NCBI GenBank assembly: GCA_963575745.1
Contig: CAUYUJ010000042.1
Coordinates: forward strand, 1-64,000
Direction of reading: 5' to 3'
Length of the DNA: 64,000 bases
Source: Prorocentrum cordatum
Lineage: Eukaryota
Shown here: positions 8,480 through 56,828 of the stretch, one piece after another
Layout of the letters: every line of letters starts with the position of its first letter
Position numbering within the stretch: the first letter of the stretch is position 1
The notes under the pieces: generated by a model
Seen by the model: only the letters and a program-made list of their open reading frames with translations
Databases searched by the model: none
What the model was told of the DNA's origin: nothing
Program-made: the position numbers and the translations under genes

Positions 8480-8481
8480 TA

Positions 8482-14960: not shown

Positions 14961-14961
14961 G

Positions 14962-15390: not shown

Positions 15391-15476
15391 AGCCATCTCG
15401 GGCAGGTTTCTGAAGCGCACGTTCCGTTCCCGTGCTGGCCCAGGTTCTGAGACGCTCATTCGGGAGCCTTGAGACG

Positions 15477-19363: not shown

Positions 19364-19550
19364 GGGGGCGGAAAAGAGGTGATGACTACGGGGGGGGTGG
19401 ATATCATGGCGGGGGCCATGATATCTCCCCAGATCTCAAGGCGCGTCTTATTATTCCATTACGTCCCTGGCCCCCCCGCTGGGCCGCGCACATGTCGCCG
19501 GTCATGATTTGCACCCCCCCCTCTTGGACACCCCCCTCTTGGCCGCTCCC
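19364..19550. mobile_element. MITE family G (GGGGCGG.AAAGAGG ... CCTCTTGGCCGCTCCC); second copy at about 22858-23092
   Basis: Two dispersed copies with inverted termini and cccccctcttggaca subrepeats. Confidence 0.75.
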
Positions 19551-19594
19551 GAGATTCCCTCCCTTCTCCCCCCGCGCGCCGCGCGCCATGGGCC

Positions 19595-19668
19595 ATGGCA
19601 GACCTCTACGGGGTGCTGGGCGTCGCGCCCGCGGCCTCGGCGGCCGAGGTGCGGAGCGCCTACCGGAG
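19595..19668 (+). CDS. J-domain (DnaJ/Hsp40-type) protein, exon 1
   Basis: MADLYGVLGVAPAASAAEVRSAYRR matches J-domain helices I-II; ends AG|GC (phase 2). Confidence 0.85.
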
Positions 19669-20097
19669 GCGCGCGCCCGCGCGCGGGCCGGGCGGAGCGC
19701 GCAGTGGAGAGACCCGCGCGCCGAGACACTCCTCCTCCTCCTCCTCCTCCTCCTCCTCCTCCTCCTCCTCCTCCTCCTCCTCCTCCTCCACCCCCTCCTC
19801 CCCCTGCTCGCCGAGAGCAGCCCAACGCGACGACCGTCTTTCTGCGTCTGTCCCCGGGGTGGTCCAGGACGGGCCCGGCCTTCCTGACTGGATGGTCCGG
19901 GACGTCCGGGCTGGTCCGGGACGTCCTGCGTCTGAGTCTGGTCCTGGCCCTCCCGACTGTGTTCTCCCGGGACGGCCCAGGAGATGGTCCGGCCTTGCTG
20001 GCGCTGGCCTCGCCGGCTTAGAGGTGCGCGCGCCCGAGCGATGCCAACGGGGGGTGGCAGTGGAGGCCCGTGCCAAGAGACGCCCTGCTTGCCTGAA

Positions 20098-20252
20098 GTC
20101 GGGCCTGTCCTCCTACAGGGGGATTTTGGAGGAAAGGACGAAAGCAAATTGTCAAAAAATGCCGCAACATGATCAAACGATACCAGAAAATCGTCCCCTG
20201 ACTATTTTTTAACTACTTCTTAATATTCCTCCTGTAGAGGGACAGGCCCGAC
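20098..20252. mobile_element. MITE family C (TIR GTCGGGCCTGTCCCYCTACAGG, TTAA-like flanks); other copies at about 27432-27698, 45590-45742, 48641, 49123-49272, 50414-50572 and 50816-50967
   Basis: aagtcgggcctgtcc..ctacagg ... cctgtag.gggacaggcccgacttaa around an AT-rich ~110-bp core. Confidence 0.85.
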
Positions 20253-20311
20253 TTAATGCTTGGCTCCAGGGTGCCCGTGGGTTTCTTCGGTGTCGACGGC
20301 TTGGCTAATGG

Positions 20312-20488
20312 AGGGTGACGATTAATAAATGACCGGGGGTCGTGTTCACGCGGCGGCGCCCGGGATGACGATTAGAAAAACCGACCGCGGGCTGGAAAAC
20401 TATGTTTTTGTATCGTTCTCCTCCAGTCAGAAATAGCAGACAACTATTGTTTAATCGTTCTCTCTCATTTTTTATTAATCGTCATCCC
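20312..20488. mobile_element. Short TIR element (GGG.TGACGATTAATAAA)
   Basis: gggtgacgattaataaa ... tttattaatcgtcatccc inverted termini. Confidence 0.6.
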
Positions 20489-20597
20489 GCATTATGGAAA
20501 GCGTGGCGTTCCCCACCCCAAAAAAGTGACGTCCTGGGGTCTCGGGGTTGAGTTTCTTGGGGAGCGTTTCCTGTGGACTGGCCTCCCCTGCACTGTA

Positions 20598-20773
20598 CAG
20601 TCGGGGCCCTGAAGAAGGAACCCTGTTCGTTGGGGAGGGGCTCCGTGTTCCTTGATTGTTTCACAGCTTGCCTCAGGTGTTCCCTAGGTTTTCGATGGGG
20701 AATCGAGCTTTCACTGATGGGAAATAGGGGCCTCGTTCCTTATTTAGGGTTCCTTAGGCCAGCGCCCCGACGG
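20598..20773. mobile_element. MITE family A copy
   Basis: ta-cagtcggggccctga ... cagcgccccgacgg. Confidence 0.8.
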
Positions 20774-21059
20774 AACGGTAGGTTCGCGCCGTGTCGATCG
20801 CCGGCGGCCCCGCCGCTGGCGCTCCACGCGGAGCGCCGCAGGCGACCCACAATCGGTCGATGTTGAAGGATCTCGCAGGCTTAGAGGTTGACACCAACAC
20901 CAGTCTCGGCGGTGTGCCTCCATCGAGGGAAGAGGATCCCGATCTCGGTGATGGTGGTAATATTCTGGCTTCCAAGGTAAGCGAAATATTACCACCAACA
21001 CCGAAATCGAGGATCATCTTCCTCCTGTGGAGGCAACCCCCTGCGTTGGTGTTGCGCAG

Positions 21060-21176
21060 GCTGGCGCTGCGCACGCACCCGGACAAGGGTGGCTCGTCCG
21101 AGGCCTTCCGGAGGGTGCTGCGCGCTTTCGAGGTGCTGTCGAGCACGCGGGCGCGAGCCGCCTACGACACGAGGAG
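21060..21176 (+). CDS. J-domain protein, exon 2 (HPD motif)
   Basis: cAG|G acceptor joins exon 1 in frame to give YRRLALRTHPDKGGSSEAFRRVLRAFEVLSSTRARAAYD; ends AG|GT. Confidence 0.88.
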
Positions 21177-22452
21177 GTCCGCGCTGAGCGCCCCCCCATC
21201 TCCATCACATTTCCTGTCCGTCCATCGCTTTTCTTCTCTCCCTGCCTCCTTCCGAGCTCTCTCATCCTGCACGTTGCCTCCTTTGTCCGCGTGCCTCCTT
21301 CCTCCGTCCTTCCCCTGCTTCGCTTCTCACGTCTCCGTCGTCTGTCCTCCTTCCCTCTCCTCCCGACTCTTCTCTTCGGCCCCCTCCCGTTGCCCGCAGA
21401 TCGTCCCAATATGCTCCCGACGTGTGGTCAAGACGCCTCGCGTGAGCGACGCAGTGGCTCCTTGGGAAATGCAGGCAAAGCTCGAAGCGCCCCCCAGCAC
21501 GAGCATGCCCGCCAGAGTCTCACCCAGTCATGTGCGGCACCCCCTCAAATGCGAAGCGGAACTGCAGTGCACGCTTCGGGATACCTTCACCTTGGTTTCG
21601 GAAGGGGCCCGATGTTCCTTGGGCCCATCCATGGGCGTGGATCCAGCTGCCAACAAGAATGCCCGAGGAGCTTTCACGGAGTACTGCACTGCCCCCCTTC
21701 CCAGGGTTTGTTCCGATCCGATCGGTCCGATTCGGTATCGATTCCAGCCGTCCCGATCCAATTCGATTCCAATATTTTTTTTCCGACGATCCGATGCTGT
21801 CCGATGCTTGCATGGCGTTGGTGCGTTCTTGCGCGGCCCACCCAATTCGATTCCGACTCCGTACCGATGCAGCCCGATCCAACGCACGTTCGGATTCGAT
21901 TCGATTTCCCGAGTCGATGCTCACTGATCTTGCCCCTCCTTTCTCCCTCACTGTCACTTCCTCCTCTACCCCTCCCACTTGTGCGTCGGCGCTCTCGCTG
22001 GCCGTAGGTTCGACGATCCAGTCCACCAAGATGGCGAGGTCTCCATTGGAGCTCTGTGTGCCGCTGGTTCGCTCGAGCCCCCCCTCCAGAGGCGCGGCGC
22101 AGGACACTTGGCAGCGCCCACTGTGAAGTACCCAGGGGGTCCACGCGGCGGGTTGCCATGCCGAAAGCGCTCCAGCTGAGCACGGGCGGTGGCGGCAGTT
22201 GCATGTTGGCCGCTCTCGCAGTTTTGTCCAGCGGCTTCGGTGCGCAATGATTGGCTCTCCCGCGCCCAAGCTGCTGCTGCAGTCGGACCGAGGCACAAGA
22301 TCGAGGCCGGTTCGAGGAGGCTACCCTCGTGTTCTTCGTGCTTGTGGGAGATGCTCTTGTTCTCGTGCATCCTGGGGAGGGTACCCATGGATGCTCTGTG
22401 TGGTTTGGCCGGCGGAGGGTTTCGTGTTCTCGAGGGATGTTCTTCTGGCCTA

Positions 22453-30288: not shown

Positions 30289-30437
30289 TGCGAGATATAC
30301 GCTGTACATATTGTGTATTGTGCAGATTGTGCAGAGCACGACGGTAGCATAGCGAGCGAGCCATTGCACTTTGGCCCAACACTTTTCAGGGCCCTTGAGT
30401 CAGCGCAGCAGCGGTGTGGAAAACATCTCAGATGTTA
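30289..30437 (+). repeat. Copia-A 5' LTR, left part
   Basis: Aligns to 44279-44427. Confidence 0.92.
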
Positions 30438-30527
30438 TGCCTAGTGTTCAACACGTGTTTGTTAGCTTCTGTCTCGGGGTTGGGCCGCCGTGAAGGTCGC
30501 GGGCTTGCATCACGTCGGAGTGTTGTA

Positions 30528-30549
30528 TCCGTGACCTTGTTGGCTCAAG
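30528..30549 (+). promoter_or_regulatory. DinoSL-like 22-mer at the 3' end of repeat A1 (identical copy at 36622-36643)
   Basis: TCCGTGACCTTGTTGGCTCAAG vs DCCGTAGCCATTTTGGCTCAAG: 18/22, ungapped. Confidence 0.8.
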
Positions 30550-30564
30550 CGAGAGCCCGGTTCA

Positions 30565-31008
30565 ATGCTGAACCGGGTGACCGACTGGCTGGGAGTGGGC
30601 GTCATTTCATACCTCCGTCGTTGCCCCTCAGCTCCTGCCTGTCCCGAGTGCCCGCCATACACGTGCCAGCTGACTTGTCCTTCGGTTCCGAGCTGCCCCG
30701 CGTGCCCTGGGTCCCCGACGCCAGCGCAGGCGTCCTGTCCTGAGCCTCCAGTCTGCCCAGCACCCGACGTGACGCCGCCCTCGAGCCGCATCTGGGACGT
30801 GGTGCTAGGCTTTCTCTCTGCGCTCACGATTACAGGGCTCGTCGCGGCGGCTGGTTGCTGTGGATCAGTTTCTCTGGCAACTTCCCGCCGCCATGGCGTC
30901 AGGAACCGTCCAGCCCTGGGCTTGGATCCTGCACAGCGGGGATCGAGGCTGGCAGCAGCGGCGAGTCTTGGGCCACTTGCGGCCGCAGGGAGTGACTCCA
31001 GTCAATGA
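30565..31008 (+). CDS. Small Cys/Pro-rich single-pass membrane protein (accessory ORF0 of the YR element)
   Basis: ATG 15 nt after the SL-like motif; repeated CP motifs, hydrophobic WDVVLGFLSALTITGLVAAAG, CC, basic tail. Confidence 0.55.
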   Translation: MLNRVTDWLGVGVISYLRRCPSAPACPECPPYTCQLTCPSVPSCPACPGSPTPAQASCPEPPVCPAPDVTPPSSRIWDVVLGFLSALTITGLVAAAGCCGSVSLATSRRHGVRNRPALGLDPAQRGSRLAAAASLGPLAAAGSDSSQ

Positions 31009-32208
31009 TCTGCTAGTGGTGTGCGTGACGCCCGATGCCGAGGTGTACTTCGAGCAGCTCGATGGGACGAGCCAGGACTACCAGGCGGTGCGCTTCGCCT
31101 CAGATCGACGGACCATCCCGCCTGGGATCGCGCGGGCCGAGACCTATAGGTTTCGTCGCCCGCCCACTGCTGCCGAGCTCGCGGTGTTCATGGTCAGGCT
31201 CGTCAGGCGGCATATGACCTGTACATCCAGCAGGCGGCAGCGGCGGCGGGGTTGCCAGCGGTGGCTCCGCCCGGAGGCGCCTTCATCCCTCTGGCGCAGC
31301 CGCTCGCGGTGGTGCCCGAGGGCGGCTCGATGCCGGCAGCTGGTGCCCTGGCTCCCGCTGCTCCTCTCGCAGGCGGCGCGGCCGCGGGCGCCGCTGGGGC
31401 TCAGTGGGTGACGGTGGAGTGGACCACGTTCGGCCCTCGCGGGTCACCTGTCACTTTGGCGGCGACTGATCACGTGCAGGGCGAGGTCGGCATCTTCACC
31501 ACTCCTTCTGGCGCAGCCGTGCTGGTCCGCGACCTGCAGGCTCACCCCGTGGAGGAGTACGTCGCCATGGAGAGCCATCACGATCTGAGGGTCAGCAAGG
31601 CCACGATCGTGGCGTCGAGGGATCGTCTCAGAGGTCGCTTCGTCGGGTCGGACGTTCAGCTTCGGGAGTCACCCTTTCCAGACTGGCCCGTGCCTGGGCC
31701 TAGGACGGTGAAGTGGCGCTGCAGCTGGCTCTTTCGCCGGCAAGGAGGACCTCTCGAGCACCACCGCTCGCTCATCATGACCTTCGGCCTGCGGACCGAT
31801 GACTGGGGCGTAGAGGTCCACCACACTGCCTTGCGCTGCCTAGATGAGGGCTTTTGTTATGATATGATTGACGTTAGCAACAGTGCCACGATCGAGCTCC
31901 TCCTCAGGAAGGCGCAGCTGGTGGAGTACGTCTACCACGTGGACTTCCTGGCCTCGCGCGGTTCTGGGCCGAAGGGCAAGGACAAAGGGGGCTCGTCATC
32001 GTTGCAGCACGCCGTGTTCGATGAGGCCGCCATCTTCTCGGGGATGACCAAGGACTCGGGCATGGCGATGGTCTGCCCGGACCTCATCGCCCACGTGGCG
32101 GGCGAGGTCGAGCGCGACGCTGCGATCCTCAAGCAGGTCCGCAAGGCCCGCGAGGAGAGGGCGGAGCTCGTGAAGCAGGGGAAGAAGGGTAATCAGGAGC
32201 AGGGGTGA
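30893..32208 (+). pseudogene. gag-like ORF1 of the YR element (frameshift near 31200)
   Basis: MASGTVQPW...TPDAEVYFE; DWPVPGPRT..W; HH; YD..DVSNSATIELLLR; KQVRKAREE. Confidence 0.75.
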
Positions 32209-34430
32209 TGCTTCCCCCTCCAGGGCTGGACCGACCTCCCGACAAGCCCTGTCGCGATCACGCCCTTCAGGGAGGGCCTCCTGGACTTACACCTGGGAGG
32301 CAGTCTGCTCACAGTCATCCTTTTTGGGCTGAGGAGCGGCAGCGCAACTTGCTGCCTCCGCCTCGGCCCGCTGCAGTTTTGCATCGAGGCTTCAGAGGAT
32401 CTGCTGTGCACCTTGGCAGGTCTATCAGGCGTCGGCTGCTGCGTACCAACCATGTTGATGAAGTTTGTGACGAGGTCGCCGGCGCGCTGAATGATTTGTA
32501 TATTGGTTCAGCCTGTCCGCGGAAGACCCAGGGCCCCACCGCCAGCCAGCCGGCCAGTCTCAACATGATTCGCCAGTCGGTCATCTCGGTGGGGCCGCCG
32601 CCGGGCGATCTGAACGGCCCAGGAGCCCTTCGAGCGCTTCGGGCGAAGAGTGCTTACGGCGAAGGCGCCGTGATCGCCCCCCTCAGCATGGGCTCCGTCC
32701 ACCTGGTCGACCTGCCTGCGGCTGGATCAGCGTCGCGGCCCCTTGAGCATCTGCCAGGCGATCGGGGCAGAGAGATTGCTGAGCGGCTAATTCAATTGCG
32801 CTTGCCAGAATCCACTGGCAGGGAGATAGCCAGACTCGAGGGACCTGCCCGACCTTACTCGGATCCTGCTCAGAAGCGGTCGCCCGCCCTCTACGCGGAG
32901 CTGCTGCGTGGGATGGCTGACTGCGACCTGATCGAGTGGCACTTGTCGGGCGAGGTCTCTCGCGGCCTGTTCTTCATTTATAAGAAGTCAGGGAAGTACC
33001 GTTTGATCGTGGGTGGTAGGCTACCATCGTGCCATTTTCGCGATAGCGACCCAGTGGCTCTGGCGTCTGGGGCTGCCTTCTCGGCCATAGAGGTTGACAG
33101 TGCGGCTCCTATCCAGGTCGGCTCGGTCGATATCATAAACGCGTTTTACAACATGCAGTTACCCGAAGCTCTTCGTGATATGTTCGTCCTCCCGAGGTTC
33201 GCGCCGACCTGGTGAATGTCTCGGCGGCCCAAGGCCGCGCTGTCAGGCGGGGCCAGTACCTGTTTCCAGTCCTGAAGGTGATTCCGATGGGCTGGAAGCT
33301 CTCCCTCTGGGCCTGTCAGCAGGTACTTGAGCATCGAGCCAGGGGGGTTCGAGGCGCGTCTGACAGCAATGCCGTGGTTGATCATCTCCCCCACCCTTGT
33401 CTGGAGCCCTTCGCGCACGCTGAGTATGTTGGCAACTTTTTCGCTTTCGGGAAGGATCGGGAGGTAGTCAAGGGCGTGGAAGAGGAGGTTCAGCAGGAAT
33501 TGAGTGGGGTAGATCTTCCAACGCATCCAGTGGAGGCGGGTCCCGGCATGACGGCTTTACGCTGGGCCCTTGACGAAAACGCTACTGTTGGTTTGAGTCC
33601 TCGCATTGTCTGGAAGATTAGGTTGGCTATTCAACATATTCTCAAGGAAGGGTATGTCAGCGGGGAGACCTTGACGGTTATCATGTCTCATTACACGACG
33701 AGAGCTCTCATCCGCCACGAGGTGTTGTGCGTTTTCTCGGCCTGTTACTCCTTTGCAGCTGACGCTGGACCTCGTCGCCGCCGTCTCTGGGGTTCTGTTC
33801 GACGCGAACTGGGCTGGGCCGCTGGGCTCATCTCCCTCGCCCCTCGTAATCTTGGGGCTGCTTGGTCTGAGGATGTCCTCGCTGTCGATGCGTCGTCTTG
33901 GGGAGGGTGTACCGTGCAGCAGAAGGTGGACATCGGCACTGTCAAGTCGCTCGGTCGGTTCAATGACAGGTGGAGATTTTCTCGCGAAGCTGAATTGCGT
34001 TATCGACCTCGGGATCACGCTCTCTCGCTCGCTCTTCTAGGAGGCTTCGACGTAGACGGGCCCGCCCCCGAGGTTCCAGAGGATAAGCTCGACGTTGACT
34101 CGAATATATGGGACGGCGAGTGGCGGCGTGTCTTGGTGAGACGGTGGGCCCGCTCGGAGGCGCAGGTGGTCCTCGAGGGCCGCAGCATGGTTCTAGCTCG
34201 CCTCCACAAGACGCGTACCCTGGCGAATTTCGGGAAGCGCCACTTGTACCTGGGCGACGCCATGGCCAGCATCCTTGCCGTGCCCAAGGGTCGTTCATCC
34301 TCCAAATTGATGCGAGTCTGTCGTCAGATTGGTGGCCTCAGCCTTGCTTTCGACGTGACCTCTCGTTGGCGCGGTGGCTTCCTTCAGAGCACAATCCCGC
34401 GGGTCGAGGCTCAAGGCGCAAGCAGGGTGA
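32208..34430 (+). pseudogene. Reverse transcriptase + RNase H of the YR element (frameshifts; YVDN altered to YVGN)
   Basis: LFFIYKKSGKYRLIV, DIINAFY, IPMGW, EYVGNF; VDASSWG, LEGR, KGRSSS, WLPSEHNPA. Confidence 0.88.
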
Positions 34431-34759
34431 CTGGGCCGAGGCGTCGGCCAAGCCCCACGCGCCCGACCCTCCAGCTGCTGTCCTACCCAGGCCGAGGCAT
34501 GCTCCGCTGGGCGGGGGCGCCCGCGGCCAGCGGGACGGCCGCGTCCGCGCCTTTGCAGCCAGGCTCGGTCGGGCCTTTGGCGTCGACGTCGGCCCCGCTG
34601 ATGTTCCCGCCGCGGCTGCCAGCAGCGAGGCCTTCGACCGCCCAGAGGTGCCGCAATCGGCCCGCAGCGCAGTCGCTGGCACCGCCCAGCGGCCTCGAGC
34701 CAGACCGTCGAGCCGATCGCGCTGCTCGCCGCCGCAGGGGCTACGGGTCGGAGCCGGCG

Positions 34760-35737
34760 GTCGACGAGCTCGGCCTGTCTCTGCTCGAGAGGCGCACCGT
34801 GAAGAAGCCCCAGGAAGCTCGGTACAAGCGAATTGTGGGTCAGTCTTGTCTCTGGTGTACAACAGCCGATCGGGCGATCGAGGACGCCACCCAGCTCGAC
34901 TCGGCGGTGACGGCCTACCTTCACGAGCAGTTCTCCCAGGGCTACCCGAGCTCGGTGGGCGCCTACCTCCTGGCGGCCCTCGCGCACTGTCGGCAGGACC
35001 TGTCGCCAAAGGCGCCCGAGCTGCTGAAGGCGAGGCGGGCGCTCTTGGGCTTCCTGAAGGCCGCCCCAAACCGGTCGAGGTGGCCCCTCCCGTGGCCGCT
35101 CACCGCGCTGATCGCGGACTCGCTGATCAACCAAGGCCACTGGGTGGCGGCCGCAGCGGCGCTCCTGTGCTACGTGTTCTACACCAGGCCGTTCGAGCTT
35201 CTGCGCCTGCGAGTGAAGGATGCTGTTCCACCACCGCGAGGAGGACCCAGAGCTCTGGCGATGTGGACCCTGCTGCTGAACGCGTCGGAGTACAGCGCGC
35301 CTTCAAAGACGGGCGAGTTCGACGAGTCGCTGAGCCACGACAACACGGAGTTCTGGTGGGTGGGAGGCCTGCTGACGCGGCTCCGTGCCGGCCGCGGCGC
35401 AATGCTGCCGCTGCTCAACCTGAAGTGCTCGAGCAGGGCCGCCCTGTTCCCCCAGGCCGCGGTCGACGTGGGCCTCGGCAACCTGGGGCCTCCCACGCTG
35501 CGCCAGCTCCGCCACGGCGGAGCGAGCCGCGAGCTGGCCACCCGCGCCCGCCCACTCGCCGAGATCAAGAAGCGCGGGCGGTGGGCAGCCGACAGCAGCG
35601 CGCGCCGCTACGAGAAGAGCGGCCTGTTGCCCACCCAGCTGCAGCGGGCCTCGGACGCCGTGCAGCGCCAGGCTCACGCTGCCGCCGCGAGCATCGGCTC
35701 GCGGATCCTGAGGATGCCGCTCGCCAGGCAGCAGTGA
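34760..35737 (+). CDS. Tyrosine recombinase
   Basis: YTRPFELL (Arg box I), SKTG, LRHGGAS, RGRW..DSSARRY (catalytic Tyr); true start uncertain. Confidence 0.9.
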   Translation, partial: VDELGLSLLERRTVKKPQEARYKRIVGQSCLWCTTADRAIEDATQLDSAVTAYLHEQFSQGYPSSVGAYLLAALAHCRQDLSPKAPELLKARRALLGFLKAAPNRSRWPLPWPLTALIADSLINQGHWVAAAAALLCYVFYTRPFELLRLRVKDAVPPPRGGPRALAMWTLLLNASEYSAPSKTGEFDESLSHDNTEFWWVGGLLTRLRAGRGAMLPLLNLKCSSRAALFPQAAVDVGLGNLGPPTLRQLRHGGASRELATRARPLAEIKKRGRWAADSSARRYEKSGLLPTQLQRASDAVQRQAHAAAASIGSRILRMPLARQQ

Positions 35738-35744
35738 CAGGACA

Positions 35745-36411
35745 ACAGTTTGCTCTAGAGATCTTTTCGGGGTCGGGCCGCCTTGCTCAGGCTCGGCGGC
35801 GGGCTGCAGCTTTGAAGAATATTCAGATACTTGAGATCGACATTCGGCACGGGCCACATTTTGACTTGCTAAATCAGAGCCTCGTCCGAAAAATCCGCGG
35901 ATGGGCTCGCGCTGGCCTGATCGCCGCGATCTGGCTGGTTCCGCCTTGCTCCTCCTTCTCGGCCCTCCGGTGCCTCTTCTCGCCGGTTCGGTCGCGCGCC
36001 TTCCCTCTTGGCCTCCCCTCCCTCTCGCCCGCCGACCAGCGTGTAGTCAACATAGCCAATCGCCTGTGCAAAGTGGCCTCCAGTATCTTAGATCTGCGCC
36101 GCAGGCTCGGTGCGCCGTGCGTCGTGGAGAATCCTCGCACCAGCCTGCTTTGGAATGTTAGAGCGTTCGAGATCCTCGCGCGAAGCTCGCGTATAGAGAC
36201 GCGCGTCACTGACTACTGCGCCTGGGGCGCTCCGTGGCGTAAGCGCACGAGGTTTCTCTGTGCCCGCATCTCAAGCAGGCATCTCAGCGTCGCTTGCTCT
36301 GGCCGCGGCGTGTGCTCGTTCTCAGGTAAGAAGCATGTTGAAATCGTTGGCAACCATCCGTGCGGTGTCAAATTCAGTAAGCTGCTTCGGAGCAATTTCG
36401 GAGAGGTCTGA
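35745..36411 (+). CDS. C5-cytosine methyltransferase-like domain of the YR element
   Basis: LEIFSGSG (motif I), PPCSSFS (motif IV), VENP (motif VI), DYCAWGAPWRKRT (motif VIII-like). Confidence 0.85.
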
Positions 36412-36824
36412 GCCGCCGTGTATGTATTTTCCCCTTGGCGGCCTCCGTCTGTTTGCGCCCCGGCTGCCGGGCATTTCGCCACTGGAAAGTCGTCTTGGCA
36501 TCCTCTGGCCTCGAGAAAGAGAACGCTCACGCACCTAGTGTTCAACGCGTTTTTGTTAGCTTCTGTCTCGGGGTTGGGCCGCCGTGAAGGTCGCGGGCTT
36601 GCATCGTGTCGGAGTGTTGTATCCGTGACCTTGTTGGCTCAAGCGCCCTCCCTGCTTTTAAGCTCCCTCCCTGCGGATCTGCACAGAGGTCTCGGAGAGG
36701 TCGGAGCCGCCGTGAATGTATTTTCTCCTGGCGGCCTCCGTCTGTTTGCGCCCCGGCTGCCGGGCATTGCGCCACTGGAAAGTCGTCTTGGCATCCTCTG
36801 GCCTCGAGAAAGAGAACGCTCGCA

Positions 36825-36881
36825 TTATGGTTTCTTATTCTCATTGCCATCGAAGACTTCGAGGGCTTTGACCAGTTCATA
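36825..36881 (+). repeat. Copia-A 5' LTR, right part
   Basis: Aligns to 44428-44484. Confidence 0.92.
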
Positions 36882-36882
36882 T

Positions 36883-36899
36883 TGGTGGCGGAACCTGGC
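36883..36899 (+). promoter_or_regulatory. Primer-binding-site-like sequence (TGGTGGCGGAACCTGGC)
   Basis: TGG starts one base after the LTR end and is complementary to a tRNA CCA end; tRNA identity not determined. Confidence 0.65.
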
Positions 36900-37087
36900 A
36901 AGCCAGGCTCACGTTTCGCCTTTCCATATATCAGCGACCTCTCTTTGGATCTGGTCGCCAACTTCATATGCAGCTCCGAGTTCCCAGCAGATCTCAGCGA
37001 CTTTACAGCAGATCTCAGAGGAGATTTTCACGTCAGTTTCTCAGCAGCCCACGCACACGATCCCACAGTCGGTTCCAACAAGGGCAG

Positions 37088-44278: not shown

Positions 44279-44484
44279 TGTGATATATGCGCTGTACATC
44301 CTGTGTGTTGTGCAGATTGTGCAGAGCACGACGGTAGCATAGCGAGCGTGCCATTGCACTTTGACTCACAACTTTTCAGGGCCATTGAGTCAGCGCAGCA
44401 GCGGTGTGGAAAACATCTCAGATGTTCTTCTGGTTTCTTATTCTCATTGCCATCAAAGACTTCGGGGGCTTTGATCAGTTCATA
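44279..44484 (+). repeat. Copia-A 3' LTR (uninterrupted)
   Basis: About 17 mismatches by eye to the reassembled 5' LTR. Confidence 0.92.
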
Positions 44485-44649
44485 CCGGGGGTGCCCAGGC
44501 CGTGCAGAGCGGCCGCCATGGAGGCCCGAGGTTGTGGCCCGGAAACCACATTTTCGGCGGGGCGGCCGGTGGGGGAAGTGAGGAGGCGCATCCGGCCCCC
44601 GGAGACCGGGGCACGGATAAACCGGGACACGCAGCACCAATCGACTTAA

Positions 44650-44820: not shown

Positions 44821-45858
44821 AGACGGTGACAGGGATAAACAACTTTGTATATATTTTGGCATTTTTGGCACTTACGCATGTTATAAGCTAGTCTTAGCTA
44901 CGCCGCAAACCCGTTATGACAGTGTGGTAACGTATCCATGAATATGTTATGATCTGTATAGAACGTCATAAAGCCGACTGGTGATACAACGAATTGTAAC
45001 ATTGTGTTACCTTGTTGTTATACATGTTTTAACGAAACCAACATAATTCGCATCGGGGAAATTACGCGGAATTGTAAAACGAAATACGGCCCAGTTACAC
45101 AGAGCACCAAGGAAACGACAGCCTTTCATGCAGAGTCACAGTTTTCAGTACTCCCGTGCATTTTTTGGTTTGCTGCGCTGCAGGATTCGGGTTGGTGTCC
45201 GGGTTCAAGCGAGTCTTGCAGGTTCTTAGGGCCTGTGCCCGGGTTTAATTGTTGGAAGTGCTGCAGTGCAGCATTTTGTGCGTGCCGCCGTCTGGGAAAA
45301 TGGATTTCGAAGGATGTTGGGCCTCCGGGTCCAGCTTGTCCAGGTTTACGGGGCTTTGAGAGCAGAGCTCCTCAGAAGGCGTTGGGCCTCCCGGAAGCCC
45401 CCGCGCCCTCCCAGAGAAGTGCTCGGAGCCTGCACGCCGAGGGCGCAGGGAGCTCCTCAGAGGGCGCGGCGAGGGCGTCTGAGGAGCCCGGCCGCGGGCG
45501 GCGGCCGCCCTCTGAGAGGGCCTGCGCCCTCTCGCTTCCCCCTCGGCTCGCCGCCGATTCCGGGGCAACGTCAGGGGCGCCAGGCTCAAGTCGGGCGTGT
45601 CCCTCTACAGGGGGAATATTCAAAAATGGTAACAACTAATCGGGGGACGATATGTTGATCATTTTTTGAGCATTTGGGGGGTATTTTTGGAGTATGTTTT
45701 CATTTGTCGTCCAAAATCCCCCCGTAGGGGGACACGCCCGACTTAACGCTAGGCTCAGGGGGGAAGGCATCGACCCCCAATCGCCCCTTCATCGCCGATA
45801 GTGGCCCGAGAGGCCCACCCCGCCCAGGACTGGGCGGAGTCGGCACATCGAGGGCTTG

Positions 45859-46034
45859 CAGTCAGCCCGCATGGGAAGCGAGGCTGAGCGACTCTCCAAG
45901 GCTACCCTTAGCAGCCTTGCCCCTTCGGCCCATCCCTGGCGACTCTCGCTAGCCAACCTCGTTCGAAAAACGTTCACACGGGCCTCCAAAGCCCTTGCAT
46001 CCTCACCGCGCATCCCTGCTATACCGGCTGGCTG
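45859..46034. mobile_element. MITE family B copy
   Basis: cagtcagcccgc ... ccggctggctg-ta. Confidence 0.75.
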
Positions 46035-46268
46035 TATCGCCGACCAAACGGCGATGCATCGCCGATTCTGGTTCGATCTTTCTCCCTTTCTTCGGTTCCC
46101 CCGTGCTGTTGCCCCTCAGGTCTGGGCCGCAAGGGGGCGCCAGGCGACGTGCCGCGGCGCGCCGCGGCTGCTGTGCGCCGCCAGGCGCCCCGCGTCGTGG
46201 GCTCTGGCTCTCTCGGGATCGCTCGCGCGGTGCGCAGCGACCTGGAGGATTCGAAGAAGAAACGTTTA

Positions 46269-46416
46269 GCCTAAGCAGACACTGTTTGGCGCTCCGCGCG
46301 GACTTCTTGGATCCGCGCTGGGGCCCCCCGGCGGCGCCTCCGGCGCCGCCTCTGGCGCGGGGGCCCAGCGCAGATCCAAGAAAGGCGCGCGCACCGTCGA
46401 ACGTGTCTGTTTGGGC
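46269..46416. mobile_element. Palindromic MITE family E (GCGCTCCGCGC.GATTTCTTGGATCCGCGCTG); related copies at about 26100, 27058, 47695 and 49350
   Basis: Near-perfect hairpin: cttggatccgcgctg ... cagcgcagatccaag. Confidence 0.75.
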
Positions 46417-46429
46417 CGTCTTTTCGTCG

Positions 46430-46676
46430 TCCACTGGAGGATGGCGACTTCGCCTCGTCGTCGTCGTCGCCCGAGGCGCTTCCACTGGAGGACGCAGCGG
46501 GTGAGGTGCTCCTCGTGGACACAGGCGACGTCGCCGCGCACCACGGCGCCGAGGGCCCCGTCCAGGGCCCCCCGCGAGAGGCCGCGCGCCCCGATCTGTC
46601 TGGCCGTGCAGGCGTCACGGGCATCCGTGGGGTGTCCCGGCGTGTGGACACCAAGACGGGGGGCATTTCCTACCAG
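46430..46676 (+). CDS. Putative exon ending ...GVTGIRGVSRRVDTKTGGISYQ
   Basis: GC3-rich frame, CAG|GC donor; 5' boundary uncertain. Confidence 0.5.
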
Positions 46677-47081
46677 GCCTTGATCTCGGGACGATCGAAG
46701 TGGTGACGGGAAGAAGGGGTGCAAAGACCGGCAGCCTTTCTTGCCCTTTTTGGGCAGGACTCTCGATTGCAAGTAAGAGTGACCTTTCGCCGGAGTGACC
46801 TCTGGTGCGGGCCCAATGGGGTCCCCCGATCGCCGAGAGCGATGGGGCAGTAGCGTCTTGCGCGCCTGTGTTTGGTCCCCCCGCGGCCCCCCCAAAGCCG
46901 CGCACCAAGGGTCACTCTTACCCAGGGTCACTCCTGCGTGTAGCCGAGACTCGCTGTCGGTGTCGCCGCGGATTGCGTCCACTTGAGACAGAAGCCCGTC
47001 AGCCCAACAGCGGCCGCTGTCGGTAGGGACAGCCTTTATTGTTGGACACTGTACCCATTTTTGCCCGTACCCATGTCGGGC

Positions 47082-47606
47082 GTCCAAGTGATCGTGATCT
47101 CGTACGTGTGCGTCCGGACGGGGTACTCGCAGAACATCCAGACCGCGATTGATCAGCACATTGCGCTGTTCCAGCTCAAGGACAGTGTCGAGAGCGCCCT
47201 GCGGTCCGAGGCCCCCGGCGTCTGCCCATCGCAGACGGCTGCGTTCGAGCATGCGATCTCCAGCGTGTTCGGAGAGGCGGTCCAATCTACACTGGCCAGA
47301 TGCAAGGTGTCCTTCTCCATCGACATGCGGGCTTTCGGCATGAAGGTGAGCACCCTCACGACGACCAGCCTGCCCGAGGTCCTCGGCCACCGCCGCCAGC
47401 TCCTGGGCGCCAGGGAGACCGGCGAGCAGGCCTTCGCCGCCGAGCTCGAGCGGGTGCTGCAGTCTGCGCGCGCCCACGTCTACAAGCGGAGCCGGCAGCT
47501 GCGGCCCGACGAGGCCGAGCGCCTGGTCCGGTCCATGCTGGAGGGGGCCCTGGAGCGCCGGCAGCGGCGCGAGGAGCGCCTGCGCGAGAGCCGGCGGCGG
47601 CGCCAG
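47082..47606 (+). CDS. Putative large exon of the J-domain gene (globular segment then coiled coil)
   Basis: Strongly GC3-biased, protein-like VIVISYVCVRTGYSQNIQTAIDQHIAL...SFSIDMRAFGMKVST...; CAG|GA donor; acceptor unclear. Confidence 0.7.
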
Positions 47607-48133
47607 GAGCTCCGAGGTAGAAAAGGTACCCATACCTCTACCCTCCGTCGCTCGTTTTCCCCTTTTTGGGCCTCCCGGGCGGCCCTCGTCACCACCGCTG
47701 GGCCCCCCCCGGCGGCGCCTCGCGCCAGGGATGGAGGGGGGTCAGCGCAGATCCAAGAGATCCGCGCAGAGCGCCAACAGTGAATGGTTATGCCGTTGCT
47801 TCTTCTTCGACAAAGCGTGCCCATGTCGCTATTCCCCGGACCTCTCTTGGGGTGCGTTCTGATTCGGATTTCGAGGCGAAGCCGACGGTGGTGACGACGC
47901 CCAGGAGGCCCCAAAAAGGGAGCACGAGCGAAGGGTATCAGGAGGGAAAGAAACACACAGACACCATTAATCGTCGATTCTCTAGAAAATATTTGAAATA
48001 TAGGAAGTGGGGGGGAAGACAGAAACCAAGAAAATATGCGAAACTATGGGGAATCTGTTTATTTGTGTGTATTTATTTGCGTGTGCTTGGGCCCCTTCAG
48101 GGTAGCGGTACCGGTGCTCGTTGGTTTCTCCAG

Positions 48134-48343
48134 GAGCGGCGCCTGCGGCACGCGCGGCTGCTCGAGGCGCGGGCGGCGGCGCGGCGGGAGCGGCTGGCGG
48201 CCCACTGGCGGCGCGCCGCGGCGCGCGCCGAGCGGCTGGCGGTCGAGGCGGGCCAGCGCCGGGCGCGGGGCGCCGCGGCCGCCGGGCGCGCGCGGCTGGA
48301 GCTCCGCCGCCGCGCGCTGAAGCAGCGCCGCGAGGCGGCCCAG
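48134..48343 (+). CDS. Putative Arg/Ala-rich coiled-coil exon
   Basis: ttctccAG|G acceptor, phase 0 with the previous exon; ERRLRHARLLEAR...; CAG|GT donor. Confidence 0.6.
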
Positions 48344-51163
48344 GTCCGCCACGCGCAGAGGGGGAGCAGTGGCGAAGCGTCCTGGCGTGCCTATAGGCCT
48401 GCCAAACAATGCTCTAAGAACCTGATGTGGTCTCCACGAAACGTTCTTAGAAGATTTCTGGCTGGGACTGTCTTGCTTCAACACACCGGGCGTATGTTCT
48501 AAGAACGCTGCTTTCGTTTTGGGAACATGTTGGGTTCTAAGAACATGTCGCTGTAGGCCTATAGGCCTATAGGAATGCCGGAACGGTCGGTCCCTGCTCA
48601 AAGAGGGGGACACAGGTTATGATGGTCCAATCTACTTTAAGTCGGGCCTGTCCCTTTTACAGGAGGAACATTCAGAAATTGACAAGCAAATCGTTTGGGG
48701 ACGATTTTATAATTTTTTCGATTCTTTTGGAATATTGTTCGAGTATTGTTATTTTTTGGCTCAGAATCCGCCTGTAGGGCTTCTGTAGGGAGATTTGCCC
48801 AATCTAAACCTACTTTAGCCTTGACCACCAGAAACAATTTCGAGCACCAGGAAAGGACCGAGACTGAAGGGTTTTCATGTGTGGGGCCCTGGGAGGCGAT
48901 ACTATTTCGACACCGTTTCGATACTTTTCTGGGTGCTCGAAATTATTTCTGGGATGTGGTCGGCCACGCGCAGAGGGGGGTAGGGGTAGGGGGTGGAGGC
49001 TTATTAGAAGCACCCCGCCTTACCTATAGAAGCAAGGCCCGCGCCTTCTAAGGAACAGCCTGCTTCTAAGAAGCCTTCCCCCCTCCCCCTACCCCCTTGT
49101 GCGCGCCGCCAAGTAGGGTTAAGTCGGGCATGTGCCTCTACAGGAGGAATTTCCAAAAGCAGTCAAGAACTAGTCTGGGGACGAGATTTCTAGTATGTTT
49201 GACCATTTGAGGCATTTTGGGGCTATGTTTAATTGTTCTTCCAACATCTCCCGATAGGAGGACTTGCCCGACCTAAGCATAGGGGGGGAGGGAAGGCCAG
49301 GGAAGGCATCTTAGATCGAGAAAGAGAAACACCATAAACATAATCTTGTTGCGCTCCGCGCAGATTTCTTGGATCCGCGCTGAGACCCCCCTGGCGGCGC
49401 CTCTGGCGCCGCCCCTGGCGCGCTCCGCGCGCCAGGGAGGGGGGTCCAGCGCGGATCCAAGAAATCTGCTCGGAGCGCAAACAAAGTATGTATCTGCCGT
49501 GTTTCCTTCTTCGATTTTCGAAGGAGGCCGCTCTTGAGAAGGCGCGGGCCTTGTCTAAAGATGTGGGGTCAGCGCCTTCTCAGAGGCGGCCTCCTTCTGT
49601 GAAGCCTCCCCCCCTCGCCCCAATTTTCAGGAGGGGAGAATAACACACAGGCGCAGTTCATCGTGGACCCCCAGGCAGAACTATGGGAACATGTGGGAAG
49701 TAGTGGGGGGGACGATGACAGCCAAGAAAACGTTGGAAAATTGGGGGAGCCCAGGGATTCCGTGCACTTTATTTGTGTTTCCCTGGGGGCGCCTTTCTAT
49801 ACTCGTGCCCCCTCGCGCGCGCCGCCACCCCAGACCCCCGACGTCATGATTTTTTCACGACGTCGACCCCGAGAAGAGGTAAGGGACCCATTCCCTGGGA
49901 CCGGCTTTTCATCCTGAGGAGGAGGAGGAGGAGGAGGAGGGAGGAGGAGGAGGAGGAGGGAGGAGGAGGAGGGAGGAGGAGGAGGAGGGGGAGAAGGAGG
50001 AGGGAGGAGGAGGAGGGAGGAGGAGGAGGAGGAGGAGGAGGAGGAGGAGGAGGAGGAGGAGGAGGAGGAGGAGGAGGAGGAGGAGGAGGAGGAGGAGGAG
50101 AGGAGCTGCCAGCTCCTGGCTCCTCGCGCGCGCGCAGGGCCCGAGGCCCGGTAGGGGCCCCCCGAGGCCGGAAACAGCGAAGAACCTCCCGTCGTGACGT
50201 TTTCCTGGCTCGAGGGGGGGTCTGGGGCGCCAGGCGCGGGCCGCGGCGGAGCGGCGGCGCCGGGCCCGGCTCAACCCGCAGGCGCTCAAGGGGCTGACCG
50301 GCGGAGGCGAGGAGGGGGCGGGCAGGCGCCCGGCCGAGGGAGCCGGATGGTGCCGGGTGCGGCCGGTGGGCAGCGGACGTCCTGGGGCCCCCGGGTGGGG
50401 CTTCTGGTGTTCGGTCGGGCCTGTCCCTCTACAGGAGGAATAGGGAAAACAGCAAAAATAGTACGGGGATTATTTTTCAATATTTGTTAAGCATTTTTTG
50501 AATATTATATATACACACGCTATTTTTCATTTTGCGTCCAGAACCCCCCTGTAGGGGGACAACAGGCCCGACCTGATTCTTGTGGGAGGTTTCTGGTGGA
50601 CCGGCCTCCAGAAAGGGCCTTGCTCTCGAGGATCGGATGAGTTGTCCGCTCTTCCGCGGCGGAAGGTCGGCGGAAATAAGACGAGGCCGCCCCCGCCGGC
50701 GGAAGCCGGCGGAAGCTCGGTGGAAAGCGGCGGACGCAAAACATGCGCCCCCAAGAGATGAACACGTTTTTGGGTACAGGGTTTTCGGAATCGGGCCAGT
50801 GTTAGCTAGGGTTAAGTCGGGCCTGTCCTTCTACAGGAGGAATATTCAAAAATAGTCAAAACATAGTCAGGGGATGATGCTTCGATTATGTTTGACCATT
50901 TGGGTGGCATGTCTTGAGTATTTTCAAATGTTCGTCCAAAATCCGCCTGTAGGGGGACAGGCCCGACCTAACACTAACAACACGATGAAGACGAGGCCTC
51001 ACTGAGGTCCCCGTCTTCGCATTGGGGACGATCTATCTGGGCGGTTTGGTCTGACACGTCTGCAGAGCAGACCCCTTGTCCCGAATGGTCTTGGTCCTCC
51101 CAGCTCAGGTCCCCTCCCAGAGGGTTATGGGGATCTGTTTGGTTCATCCTGATGATGTTCCAA

Positions 51164-51350
51164 CCTACTTTAGCTTTGATCACCAGAAAGAATTTCGAGC
51201 ACCAAAAAAAAAACACACACACACCAAACTCGAGGTTTTTCACGCGTCGGGCCCTGGGAGACACTCGCCCGACACTGTTTCGACATTCTTTCGACACTTT
51301 TCCGGGTGCTCGAAATTATTTCTGGGATGTGGTCCTTAAGCTTTAAGTAG
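51164..51350. mobile_element. TIR element (CCTACTTTAGC...AATTTCGAGCACC); interrupted copy at 48809-49117
   Basis: cctactttagc..aatttcgagcacc ... ggtgctcgaaatt..ctttaagtagg. Confidence 0.75.
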
Positions 51351-52554: not shown

Positions 52555-52599
52555 TAGGCAGAATTTCCGACCGCACGTGTGAGTGCCCCCCCGGGCGAG

Positions 52600-52676
52600 C
52601 CGCCCCTTCTGCGGCCGCCGAGCTGACGTTCGGCCAGCAGCAGGACGTGGCCGCGCAGCTCCGCCACCGGGCCTGA
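52600..52676 (+). CDS. Possible terminal exon (AELTFGQQQDVAAQLRHRA*)
   Basis: Short GC3-rich stretch ending in TGA; linkage to the upstream exons is inferred only. Confidence 0.3.
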
Positions 52677-56489: not shown

Positions 56490-56828
56490 TGTGAAGCGAA
56501 GCTTCACAGGGTCAAATACACCTCTTCCTTCGAGCTGCTCTCGACGTAGCTCGATACGATCCTCTTTTCCTTGCAGCGCCGCCTGCACCGCAACAGTACT
56601 TGCCACCAGTGCTGTATCTGTGCACGGAGTGTGTGGAGAGGGAGAGGTGTGTGGTATTGGGCTCGATTGAATAGAAGGTAGGAGAAAGACGGGGGGCCTC
56701 TGATGGCCCCCGGGACCCTGCTGGCCCCGCAATGAAGGCCTGCAGCCAAATGGCTATGGATGGAGCGAACATTAAACACGATCCAAGATCGAAAGATCGA
56801 CACCGACCCTAAAATATCTTCGCTCACA
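56490..56828 (-). repeat. Putative Copia-B 3' LTR (339 bp)
   Basis: TG...CA with inverted termini tgtgagcgaag / cttcgcttcaca, just downstream of the RNase H stop; partner LTR not in the window. Confidence 0.7.
56740..56760 (-). promoter_or_regulatory. DinoSL-like 21-mer within the Copia-B LTR
   Basis: TCCATAGCCATTT-GGCTGCAG vs TCCGTAGCCATTTTGGCTCAAG: 18/22 with one gap. Confidence 0.75.

Follow-up and report, generated by a model that had tools for sequence, protein, structure and literature searches.

Nearly all dinoflagellate mRNAs receive one common 22-nt leader, and the retro-copying of RNAs bearing this spliced leader (SL) is thought to have shaped the very large genomes of these organisms. 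For retroelements residing in such genomes this poses a problem: trans-splicing should strip off the 5' repeat sequence which they need to replicate. How a retroelement copes with trans-splicing is not addressed in the literature we searched. The question is raised by a stretch of 64,000 nucleotides of Prorocentrum cordatum DNA, hereafter called the window, which harbours a tyrosine-recombinase (YR) retrotransposon whose terminal repeat ends in a sequence strongly resembling the SL. Is this resemblance accidental, the relic of a past reverse transcription, or a working part of the element, as proposed in the preliminary description of the locus, which regarded it as a leader encoded by the element itself?

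Results

Architecture of the element carrying the motif

The element extends to position 36824, where the preliminary description had placed its end, while the start assigned there (30438) proved to be 2 nt early, since repeat A1 begins at 30440. It sits inside the 5' LTR of a Copia element (Copia element 1, with PR-INT-RT-RH order between its LTRs). The left part of the broken LTR (30289..30439, + strand) is 92% identical to 44279-44426, the right part (36825..36892, + strand) is followed by the PBS-like TGGTGGCGGAACC, and the unbroken 3' LTR (44279..44500, + strand) serves as empty-site reference. The repeats of the YR element, all on the + strand, are arranged in the order A1 - coding region - B1 A2 - B2, i.e. 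in the split-direct-repeat (PAT/Ngaro-like) layout as defined in PMC3783388 and PMC7192593. A1, the 5' terminal repeat (30440..30551), comprises 112 nt and is 96% identical to its internal copy A2 (36534..36645), all four differences falling within the first 88 nt and three of them being CpG transitions. A2 is directly adjoined by B1 (~36398..36533), which shares 96% identity over ~131 nt (36692-36821) with the 3' terminal repeat B2 (36692..36824). Between A2 and B2 lies a C/T-rich spacer of 46 nt (36646..36691, + strand), and a similar C/T-rich tract is present in relatives of the element.

The coding region, likewise on the + strand, starts with ORF1 (30565..31008; 147 aa), to which no family could be assigned and the region of which is conserved in a cousin, the antisense-ORF relative P0027. 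In the subsequent RT/RNase H region (32193..34600) the frame changes near 33195, which breaks it into two parts; sibling contigs show 1-nt insertions at 33195 and 33197. Pfam yielded no match for the element's own RT, YR and methyltransferase-like ORFs. Support for the RT comes from homologues, residues 1-480 of the ORF 33179-35734 retrieving 17 relatives, six of which contain PF00078; a putative RNase H behind it gave no family match and was read by eye only. The YR region (35051..35734) is 79% identical to that of L002 and 33% identical to that of L004, the L-numbered relatives having been taken from metagenome contigs. PF00589 is recognised in L004 with E=2.5e-6 (27.8 bits, cut-off 27.1) and, in both cases below the cut-off, in L002 (5.5e-4) and L003 (2.9e-3); within the element, an rve domain was not detected. 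Adjacent to the YR, a cytosine-5 DNA-methyltransferase-like domain (35743..36411) is truncated at its C-terminus, with ~118 nt missing compared to L001. Neither Pfam nor the PDB returned a match to its sequence. A Foldseek search of the PDB with its AF2 model (pLDDT 76) listed exclusively matches to C5 DNA or DNMT2-type methyltransferases, with E-values from 3e-4 at modest TM-scores of 0.34-0.46; these matches cover the DNMT1, DNMT2, DNMT3, ZMET2 and bacterial classes. The gene order RT .. YR - methyltransferase-like, the latter in its own frame, is common to the window element, L002-L004 and L010, and the closest named relatives retrieved by homologue search are proteins of Prorocentrum cordatum. 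The frame changes and the truncated methyltransferase-like ORF identify this copy as degenerate and thus silent on present activity.

With its A-coding-B-A-B repeats, a divergent RT missed by Pfam, a YR, a cytosine-methyltransferase-like fold and a dinoflagellate host, the element resembles the SymbioDIRS-Dnmt3 retrotransposons described from Symbiodinium, the DIRS RTs of which are also missed by Pfam (de Mendoza et al. 2018, PMC5890265); family and layout match a published type, a point in support of the preliminary description. Unlike in the two arrangements given in PMC5890265, the methyltransferase-like domain is here placed after the YR, in its own frame and outside the RT ORF. The accessible parts of PMC5890265 on SymbioDIRS-Dnmt3 mention neither “spliced leader” nor “DinoSL”.

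An SL-like motif at the inner end of repeat A

The 22-mer TCCGTGACCTTGTTGGCTCAAG is located on the + strand at 30528-30549 in A1 and, identically, at 36622-36643 in A2. Both copies fall within the final 24 bases of the repeat, so that 2 nt (CG) remain after the motif, and the A2 copy ends 48 nt before B2. Aligned without gaps to the dinoflagellate SL exon, which is the 22-nt DCCGTAGCCATTTTGGCTCAAG (PMC7245778), the motif agrees at 18 of 22 positions, with mismatches at positions 6, 7, 10 and 12, and the U-rich core of the SL is changed in it to TTGTTGG. Both sites, the degree of this match, the end of A1/A2 identity 2 nt past the motif and the distance of 15 nt from the A1 motif to the first ATG at 30565 had been given in the preliminary description and were all reproduced. 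The ATG lies in the loop of a 10-bp hairpin (30555..30578, + strand; 6 nt after the motif), the stem of which is present in the MFE as well as in the centroid fold, the z-score of the whole region being just -1.6.

If up to three mismatches are allowed, TCCGTGACCTTGTTGGCTCAAG is found at just these two sites within the window, and none of 100 shuffles gave any. For at most four mismatches to the SL in 21 positions the analytic expectation amounts to 0.015 over 128 kb, and a gapped SL score of 13 is attained by three real sites in the window versus none in 10 shuffled windows. Measured against 2000 dinucleotide shuffles of the stretch between B1 and B2, the A2 motif yields p=0.0005. The canonical SL is absent from the window at up to three mismatches, and a search of Rfam gave no match. 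Given the empty Rfam result and a CG instead of a GT donor after the motif, the latter looks as if an SL exon had been attached to the body of an mRNA. The motifs of A1 and A2 are identical including all four non-canonical bases, which is uninformative by itself as a divergence of 4.5% predicts only ~1 difference in 22 nt. Taken together, these results support the view that repeat A has the motif built into it and that this motif derives from the SL, being neither a product of chance nor an SL RNA gene.

Recurrence of the motif in related elements

New compared with the preliminary description is that a distant relative possesses an SL-like motif, too, and in the corresponding place. L004, whose proteins are 32-33% identical to those of the window element and whose gene order is the same (RT..YR-methyltransferase-like-B1-x-B2), carries between B1 and B2 the sequence ACCGTGGCCGTTTCGCTTCAAG, which matches the SL at 17 of 22 positions (p=0.0025). 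Within the inter-B stretch, on which the comparison with relatives drew, it ends at nt 107 of 157 in L004 (50 nt before B2) and at nt 110 of 158 in the window element (48 nt), and the noncoding sequence around it is no longer alignable between the two. The enrichment against shuffled controls which the preliminary description had envisaged across related YR families was in part obtained: it holds for L004 and for the four relatives with a delimitable inter-B stretch combined (Fisher's p=0.0039), whereas the three others are weaker or non-significant (p=0.064, 0.26 and 0.29), leaving L004 the only one individually significant, and no motif is present in either L010 (596 nt downstream) or L017 (461 nt), both of which should extend as far as the site.

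An unguided MAFFT alignment of the five inter-B stretches places all of the motifs in one block, and this block and the C-rich tract after it are the only conserved ones. The motifs of the window element and L004 agree at 15 of 22 positions, each being nearer to the canonical SL (18/22 and 17/22, respectively) than to the other, as would be expected if the host SL had refreshed them or if selection drew them towards it. Four of the five motifs have lost the AG of SL positions 6-7, all five retain an AG at their 3' end, and the centre differs among relatives. A further sequence, L029, has an ordinary relic-SL gene start which looks the same as the junction of the motif with the mRNA body.

Discussion

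With a probability of about 0.5 we regard the motif as an SL-derived R-like segment which would mark the 5' end of the element RNA and serve as the homologous sequence when the strand is transferred onto A2. In retroviruses and LTR retrotransposons, the first strand transfer is guided by the R region, a short sequence which both RNA ends possess. Unlike R, the redundancy would here consist of a host trans-spliced sequence of just 22-24 nt with its second copy lying internally, and the element is of YR type and has no integrase-type LTR cycle. With the motif in A1 as well as in A2, the DNA arrangement permits such a redundancy. It is from the sequence that we infer how the motif originated (through reverse transcription), where the RNA has its 5' end, the use of an acceptor and the role in strand transfer.

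Most likely, an SL-trans-spliced RNA of the element was reverse transcribed, whereby the host SL exon would have become fixed in repeat A; the junction of the motif with CGAGAG..ATG looks like an ordinary SL-mRNA junction and fits such an origin. The motif in A1 would be the point where the element RNA begins. Repeat A would accordingly consist of an 88-nt upstream part missing from the RNA and an R-like part of 22-24 nt kept in it, which would recur in A2, near the RNA 3' end. Having reached the RNA 5' end, minus-strand cDNA would pair with A2 and then copy the missing 88 nt and B1, by which the full element would be restored as in the DIRS model. That split-direct-repeat elements restore missing RNA ends from an internal copy, a premise of the preliminary description, is indeed the accepted DIRS model (PMC7192593). 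The left repeat is missing from the DIRS-1 transcript, and experiments show that its restoration requires the internal copy (PMC7192593). With its internal copy near the 3' end and its A-pol-B-A-B order the present element is comparable to DIRS-1 with its internal complementary region and to PAT/Ngaro elements with their B1A2 junction copy (PMC7192593, PMC3783388), yet none of the DIRS-order elements has been reported to use a host leader as overlap of RNA 5' end and internal copy. Nor did the literature searched contain an earlier description of the present observation.

The terminal AG of the motif (30548-30549) is probably re-used as trans-splice acceptor. If so, the encoded copy would be exchanged for a capped real SL at unchanged RNA length, the strand switch would take place inside the perfectly matching 3' part TTGGCTCAAGCG, and A2 would act as master copy. 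As an alternative to acceptor use, transcription might start at the motif itself. It speaks against the acceptor that an acceptor in A2 would cut the genomic RNA, too. Moreover, copying of a trans-spliced canonical SL would make A1 canonical; as A1 carries the four non-canonical bases of A2, the 5' end copied last fell short of a complete canonical SL, except in the case of an early strand switch. The model accordingly requires that the strand be switched early or that the 5' end be encoded. Of the initial idea of an element-encoded leader, there remains that the motif is SL-derived, built into A and recurrent in L004. Against its simplest version speak the variant instead of the canonical SL in A1, the weakness of the second Copia case and the absence of the motif from L010 and L017.

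The altered SL copy in both A repeats, together with the motif of L004 at the equal spot, suggests that the element depends on host trans-splicing for its own copying. If this holds true, an SL copy at the edge where the RNA starts, repeated in the internal copy used for restoration, would solve the stripping of 5' repeats in a simple way. It would also provide a testable rule by which to annotate, in dinoflagellate retroelements, the R-like region and the site where the RNA starts, explain how elements can be expressed without a promoter of their own, and connect the fact that SL-tagged retrogenes are abundant with reverse transcriptases adapted to SL-bearing templates. A retroelement fixing its own 5' end in a trans-splicing host is known from Trypanosoma cruzi, where L1Tc bears the Pr77 promoter / HDV-like ribozyme at its 5' end (PMC3383444). 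Unlike the element described here, L1Tc is reported to be a non-LTR element relying on an internal promoter and self-cleavage, with unspliced transcripts and no SL copy.

It is possible, if on balance doubtful, that the motif is a passive relic, SL-capped element RNA having been reverse transcribed once and the SL being carried along in A without any role in replication or expression. Retro-copied genes of dinoflagellates commonly have relic SLs in front of them (PMC3229502, PMC7245778, PMC5585692), and these relics are explained by the model of Slamovits and Keeling (described in PMC3229502 and PMC7245778). The present motif shares with them that it is a DNA-encoded copy of the SL exon right before a coding region which reverse transcription can explain. 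Its four mismatches, as in a decaying relic, the relic-SL gene start of L029, the lack of individual significance in two of the four relatives (p=0.26 and 0.29) and the absence of the motif from L010 and L017 are equally in line with a passive origin. Relics stand, however, at the extreme 5' end of the retro-copied unit, and older ones are stacked in tandem and truncated at the AG of positions 6-7, which as an internal acceptor yields truncated tandem copies in retrogenes (PMC3229502), while the motif is full-length, single and not truncated at nt 7. It is furthermore situated in the terminal repeat of a mobile element, 88 nt inside, and is duplicated in the internal copy. A one-off relic at the RNA 5' end would leave the copy in A2 unexplained, as it would the SL-like motif at equal offset in L004, an element of ~32% identity with unalignable surroundings. 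Were the motif gained passively and independently at one spot, that spot would itself be set by the replication mechanism. Even as nothing but a passive relic, the motif would be a useful marker of trans-spliced element RNAs.

We consider it unlikely that the transcription start coincides with the motif or immediately precedes it and that the RNA is not trans-spliced, the SL look-alike serving as 5' leader, e.g. for factors which recognise SL-bearing mRNAs in translation or RNA handling, and the terminal redundancy being incidental. Such a leader would predict A1 to equal A2 at the four non-canonical positions, as found. A real SL brings along its cap structure, which an encoded copy would be devoid of, and the variation of the motif centre among relatives is a poor fit to a sequence-specific recognition element. 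In favour of an encoded start, DIRS-1 has its start site close to the left repeat's inner end (PMC7192593).

It is very improbable that part of an SL RNA gene was captured, or that the element inserts into SL genes as known for SLACS/CZAR-type elements; nothing but the similarity to the SL exon speaks for this. SL RNA genes consist of SL exon, GT splice donor and intron, often in tandem or 5S-linked arrays. The tested features contradict such a descent: both copies are followed by CG, the core is changed to TTGTTGG, neither Rfam nor the search for a canonical SL in the window returned a hit, and the motif is positioned 88 nt inside the element's own repeat, the element in turn residing in a Copia LTR and not in an SL array. 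Chance resemblance, for which only the shortness of the motif could be adduced, has a negligible probability in view of the shuffles, the analytic expectation and L004, in which the motif occurs independently a second time at an equal offset.

Returning to the R-like segment, one may tentatively ask whether unrelated classes, DIRS-like YR and Copia LTR elements, have built the host SL into the R-equivalent of their terminal repeats; we are rather sceptical of so general a scheme. Trans-splicing would in that case recreate rather than remove the needed 5' repeat, the SL would act as cap donor and as homology for strand transfer, and the elements would be promoter-independent passengers of polycistronic transcription. 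Of the SL-like feature claimed in the preliminary description for two Copia elements in the window, one instance is significant and the other is weak. The weak one concerns Copia element 1, where a stretch at ~30358-30380 in the left LTR part reaches a local score of 11 with the aid of a 5-nt gap (p=0.008), the unbroken 3' LTR giving p=0.057. The significant one is TCCATAGCCATTTGGCTGCAGG (56739..56760, - strand; p=0.002) in Copia element 2, which is characterised by RVT_2 in the ORF 57131-64000 on the - strand. It lies downstream of this element's pol stop, at a distance of ~370 nt, and ~70 nt into its probable 3' LTR.

Spliced-leader-like motif within repeat A

A 22-mer resembling the dinoflagellate spliced leader (SL) had been noted near the inner end of the terminal repeat of the tyrosine-recombinase (YR) retrotransposon. 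This motif, TCCGTGACCTTGTTGGCTCAAG, is present on the forward strand at 30528-30549, within repeat A1, and in the same sequence at 36622-36643, within repeat A2. No other site in the window deviates from it by three mismatches or fewer, and none of 100 shuffles contained any match. The ungapped agreement with the leader DCCGTAGCCATTTTGGCTCAAG (PMC7245778) amounts, as claimed, to 18 of 22 positions, the four mismatches falling on positions 6, 7, 10 and 12 while the final 10 nt match perfectly. On both strands of the window, 0.015 sites with up to four mismatches in 21 positions are expected by chance (analytic estimate). A gapped SL score of 13 is reached by three real sites, namely those in A1 and A2 and one near a Copia element, and by no site in ten shuffled windows. 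The motif is real and not a product of chance. Its described position is likewise confirmed: it is followed by CG, i.e. 2 nt, after which the identity of A1 and A2 ends, and the first ATG (30565) is located 15 nt past the A1 motif. The 9-mer TCCGTGACC occurs once more in the window, near Copia 2, a number which lies within expectation. A hairpin at 30555-30578, beginning 6 nt past the motif, consists of a 10-bp perfect stem and a 4-nt loop which harbours the start codon of ORF1. As implied by P0027, a protein relative of the antisense ORF across A1, the 5' UTR of a cousin is very similar.

Reading the motif as an SL RNA gene can be dismissed, since at both copies the 22-mer is followed by CG instead of a GT donor and its U-rich core is altered. 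The Sm site is situated inside the SL. The canonical SL is not found in the window at up to three mismatches, and an Rfam search gave no match. The junction at the motif looks like that of an SL exon and an mRNA body with the start codon just after it, and the same arrangement is observed at an ordinary gene start with a relic SL in the metagenome locus L029. There, within 1815-1945, the relic CATTGGCTCAAG is truncated; about 70 nt further on comes another SL-like stretch, CTGTAGCGCTTTTGGCTGCCAG, located 16 nt upstream of an ATG which opens an acidic repeat ORF.

Anatomy and classification of the YR element

Repeats A1 (30440-30551) and A2 (36534-36645), both 112 nt in length and on the forward strand, are 96% identical, as are B1 (approximately 36398-36533) and B2 (36692-36824) on the same strand. 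The order A1-coding-B1A2-B2 corresponds to the layout described for split-direct-repeat tyrosine-recombinase retrotransposons (PMC3783388, PMC7192593). Neither Pfam nor PDB sequence searches with the ORFs of the window's own element gave a match; the missing Pfam matches agree with the remark by de Mendoza et al. 2018 (PMC5890265) that the reverse transcriptases (RTs) of Symbiodinium DIRS elements align poorly with Pfam. The domain calls rest on relatives (RT and YR) and on the predicted fold (methyltransferase-like domain). Of the 17 homologues obtained for the RT/RH part, 6 show PF00078, and the nearest named ones are proteins of Prorocentrum cordatum. In the recombinase region, identity amounts to 79% with the sibling locus L002 and to 33% with the more distant L004, the latter matching PF00589 above cut-off. 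For the last ORF, the structure of which was predicted with a pLDDT of 76, the Foldseek matches listed against the PDB are cytosine-5 methyltransferases throughout, with modest TM scores. Since all three domains are supported via relatives or fold, the element resembles the published SymbioDIRS-Dnmt3 type (PMC5890265), although the domain order differs, being RT..YR-methyltransferase-like in the window. The YR element as such is of a known kind. The copy in the window is degenerate: a frame change interrupts its RT at a place where sibling contigs have 1-nt insertions, and its last ORF lacks about 118 nt compared with the sibling L001.

Insertion site

The element resides in the 5' LTR of Copia 1, an element with the gene order PR-INT-RT-RH between its LTRs. 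The LTR portion preceding the insertion (30289-30436) is 92% identical to 44279-44426, and the LTR resumes at 36825. The DNA contigs from four public runs which align to the YR element comprise sibling copies and one empty-site contig, in which a diverged version of the site joins 30403 to 36828. In a further DNA contig, A1 is preceded by another flank. Hence, the 6.4-kb unit is a discrete insertion. Of the 1111 differences in the aligned contigs, the 40 listed include none within the motif, a number too small to judge its conservation.

The sequence TTATG is present on both sides of the element (30435-30439 and 36825-36829). It cannot count as a clean target duplication, as the uninterrupted 3' LTR of Copia 1 reads GATGTTCTTCTGGTTTC at the insertion site. 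One sibling contig from run X2 is aligned from 30436 (TATG) on and has a different flank before this point. TTATG/TATG at the element edge could stem from the recombinase preferring certain targets or from a crossover core.

Occurrence of the motif in related elements

Metagenome contigs were scanned for proteins resembling the methyltransferase-like domain, which yielded 37 loci. In four of these, a direct-repeat pair (106-189 nt, 95-99% identical, spaced by 272-289 nt) lies downstream of the domain; the B repeats in the window are spaced by 294 nt. The stretch between B1 and B2, which holds A2 in the window, could be delimited in these four loci (L004, L025, L036 and L022). L004 shares the gene order of the window element at a protein identity of 32-33%. 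Its inter-B stretch (157 nt vs. 158 nt in the window) contains ACCGTGGCCGTTTCGCTTCAAG, matching the SL in 17 of 22 positions (p=0.0025, 2000 dinucleotide shuffles), with the motif ending at position 107 vs. 110 and lying 50 nt vs. 48 nt upstream of B2. The motif of L025 is weaker (p=0.064), and neither that of L036 (p=0.26) nor that of L022 (p=0.29) reaches significance alone. Combined by Fisher's method, the four relatives give p=0.0039. An unguided MAFFT alignment of the five inter-B stretches placed all five motifs in one block with a C-rich tract after it, while the remainder did not align. The motifs of the window and L004 agree with each other in only 15 of 22 positions, compared with 18 and 17, respectively, to the SL. 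The AG at SL positions 6-7, which has been described as an acceptor yielding truncated tandem relics in retrogenes (PMC3229502), is gone in four of the five motifs; the AG at the 3' end is kept in all five.

The matching offset in L004 supports a motif kept in related elements. Evidence to the contrary comes from L010 and L017, in which 596 nt and 461 nt, respectively, follow the domain and no motif is found. The siblings L001 and L002, at a protein identity of 76%, break off within or ahead of B1 and do not reach A2. When the five aligned motifs were turned into a profile, its only instances in the 37 loci and the window were the training sites themselves and A1. Exact scans for the variant 22-mer gave no match in viral_contigs or genome_contigs, and metagenome_contigs had none for a 27-mer taken as an anchor immediately 5' of the motif. 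The protein-guided scan of viral_contigs returned 15 pattern matches and no relative. As a protein query, the antisense ORF across A1 retrieved one relative, P0027, which ends just before the motif; the sense ORF across B1-A2-B2 retrieved only two unrelated repeat proteins from the representative library. An SL-like stretch in L005 (p=0.003) was treated as chance, since it is coding sequence, in the tail of the methyltransferase-like ORF, and its counterpart in L009, a 98% identical copy of L005, is weaker.

Some further features of the relatives concern their architecture. Repeat B of L004 (3142-3260 and 3418-3536) starts with an AATAAA-containing stretch, which would be consistent with an RNA whose 3' end lies in B2; repeat B of the window has no such signal. 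L025 and L028 are 84% identical copies of one family, the former organised as B1-x-B2, the latter having a single B followed by unrelated sequence, as would be expected had B1 recombined with B2 and A2 been lost. Sequence identity among L005-L009, five contigs from different records, is 98-99.9% over up to 5.5 kb. A recombinase gene and a methyltransferase-like one are present in these contigs; no RT was detectable in them, nor were B1/B2 repeats within 4 kb. They may represent a domesticated or a different kind of element.

SL-like stretches in the Copia elements

A similar feature had also been proposed for both Copia elements of the window, a claim which stands for one of them and is weak for the other. 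Copia 2 is encoded on the reverse strand, with RVT_2 in ORF 57131-64000. Its SL-like motif TCCATAGCCATTTGGCTGCAGG (56760-56739, reverse strand) emerged from an unbiased window scan with a score of 13 (p=0.002 locally). It is located about 370 nt past the pol stop and probably about 70 nt into the 3' LTR, whose boundaries are putative since the 5' LTR is outside the window. In Copia 1, however, the match of AGCCATTgcacTTTGGCCCAA requires a 5-nt gap and constitutes a weak case (p=0.008 in the 5' LTR, p=0.057 in the 3' LTR, from a targeted look). The LTRs of the two elements do not align, and their integrases are 24% identical. Directly past the (probable) LTR, both elements have TGGTGGC (36893-36908; 56599-56585, reverse strand), which resembles a primer-binding site. 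Its presence after the expected 3' LTR of Copia 2 may indicate that a second element, in tandem or truncated, follows downstream.

Possible role of the motif in replication

The DIRS-1 transcript has been reported to lack the left repeat, and the internal copy was experimentally required for restoring the element (PMC7192593). By analogy, repeat A would consist of 88 nt absent from the RNA and an R-like part of 22-24 nt, the SL copy, which would be found at the RNA 5' end (from A1) and again in A2. cDNA reaching the RNA 5' end could then anneal to A2, from which the missing part would be copied. The first 88 nt of A1 and A2 differ at four positions, three of them being CpG transitions. All four departures from the canonical SL are common to A1 and A2, so that the variant is older than this insertion; these sequences also indicate that the last replication cycle copied a 5' end which was not a full canonical SL.

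Dinoflagellate mRNAs generally depend on the SL. A real SL could be spliced on at the terminal AG, giving an RNA whose SL part would have the canonical bases (A-G at positions 6-7, A at 10 and T at 12) and be followed directly by CGAGAGCCCGG. The strand switch would then occur within the perfectly matching TTGGCTCAAGCG, making A2 the master copy. Alternatively, transcription could start at the encoded motif itself. On account of the general SL dependence and of the pattern of lost and kept AGs, we slightly favour splicing of the SL onto the terminal AG. The proposed function of the motif in replication appears plausible.

Full-text literature searches revealed no description of an SL copy inside a transposon terminal repeat. 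None is described in the sections retrieved from PMC3229502, PMC7245778, PMC11453091, PMC5890265, PMC5585692, PMC3942190, PMC5776459, PMC8045281 and PMC12014239, and the terms "spliced leader" and "DinoSL" do not occur in the main text retrieved for PMC5890265 and PMC5776459. What is new is a repeat whose inferred RNA-start edge holds an SL copy, with a duplicate inside the element and a counterpart in a distant relative.

Surroundings of the elements

The window has a G+C content of 60.7%. Many long trinucleotide-type tracts (GAG, GAT and GAC runs) lie within 1-29000 and 45000-56000, and a 44-nt tandem array is located at 14918-15445. Several dispersed short repeats are common to 8300-8650, 20100-20750, 45580-46030 and 49100-52350. 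Fragments of DnaJ domains are present at 19508-20209 and 20782-21924.
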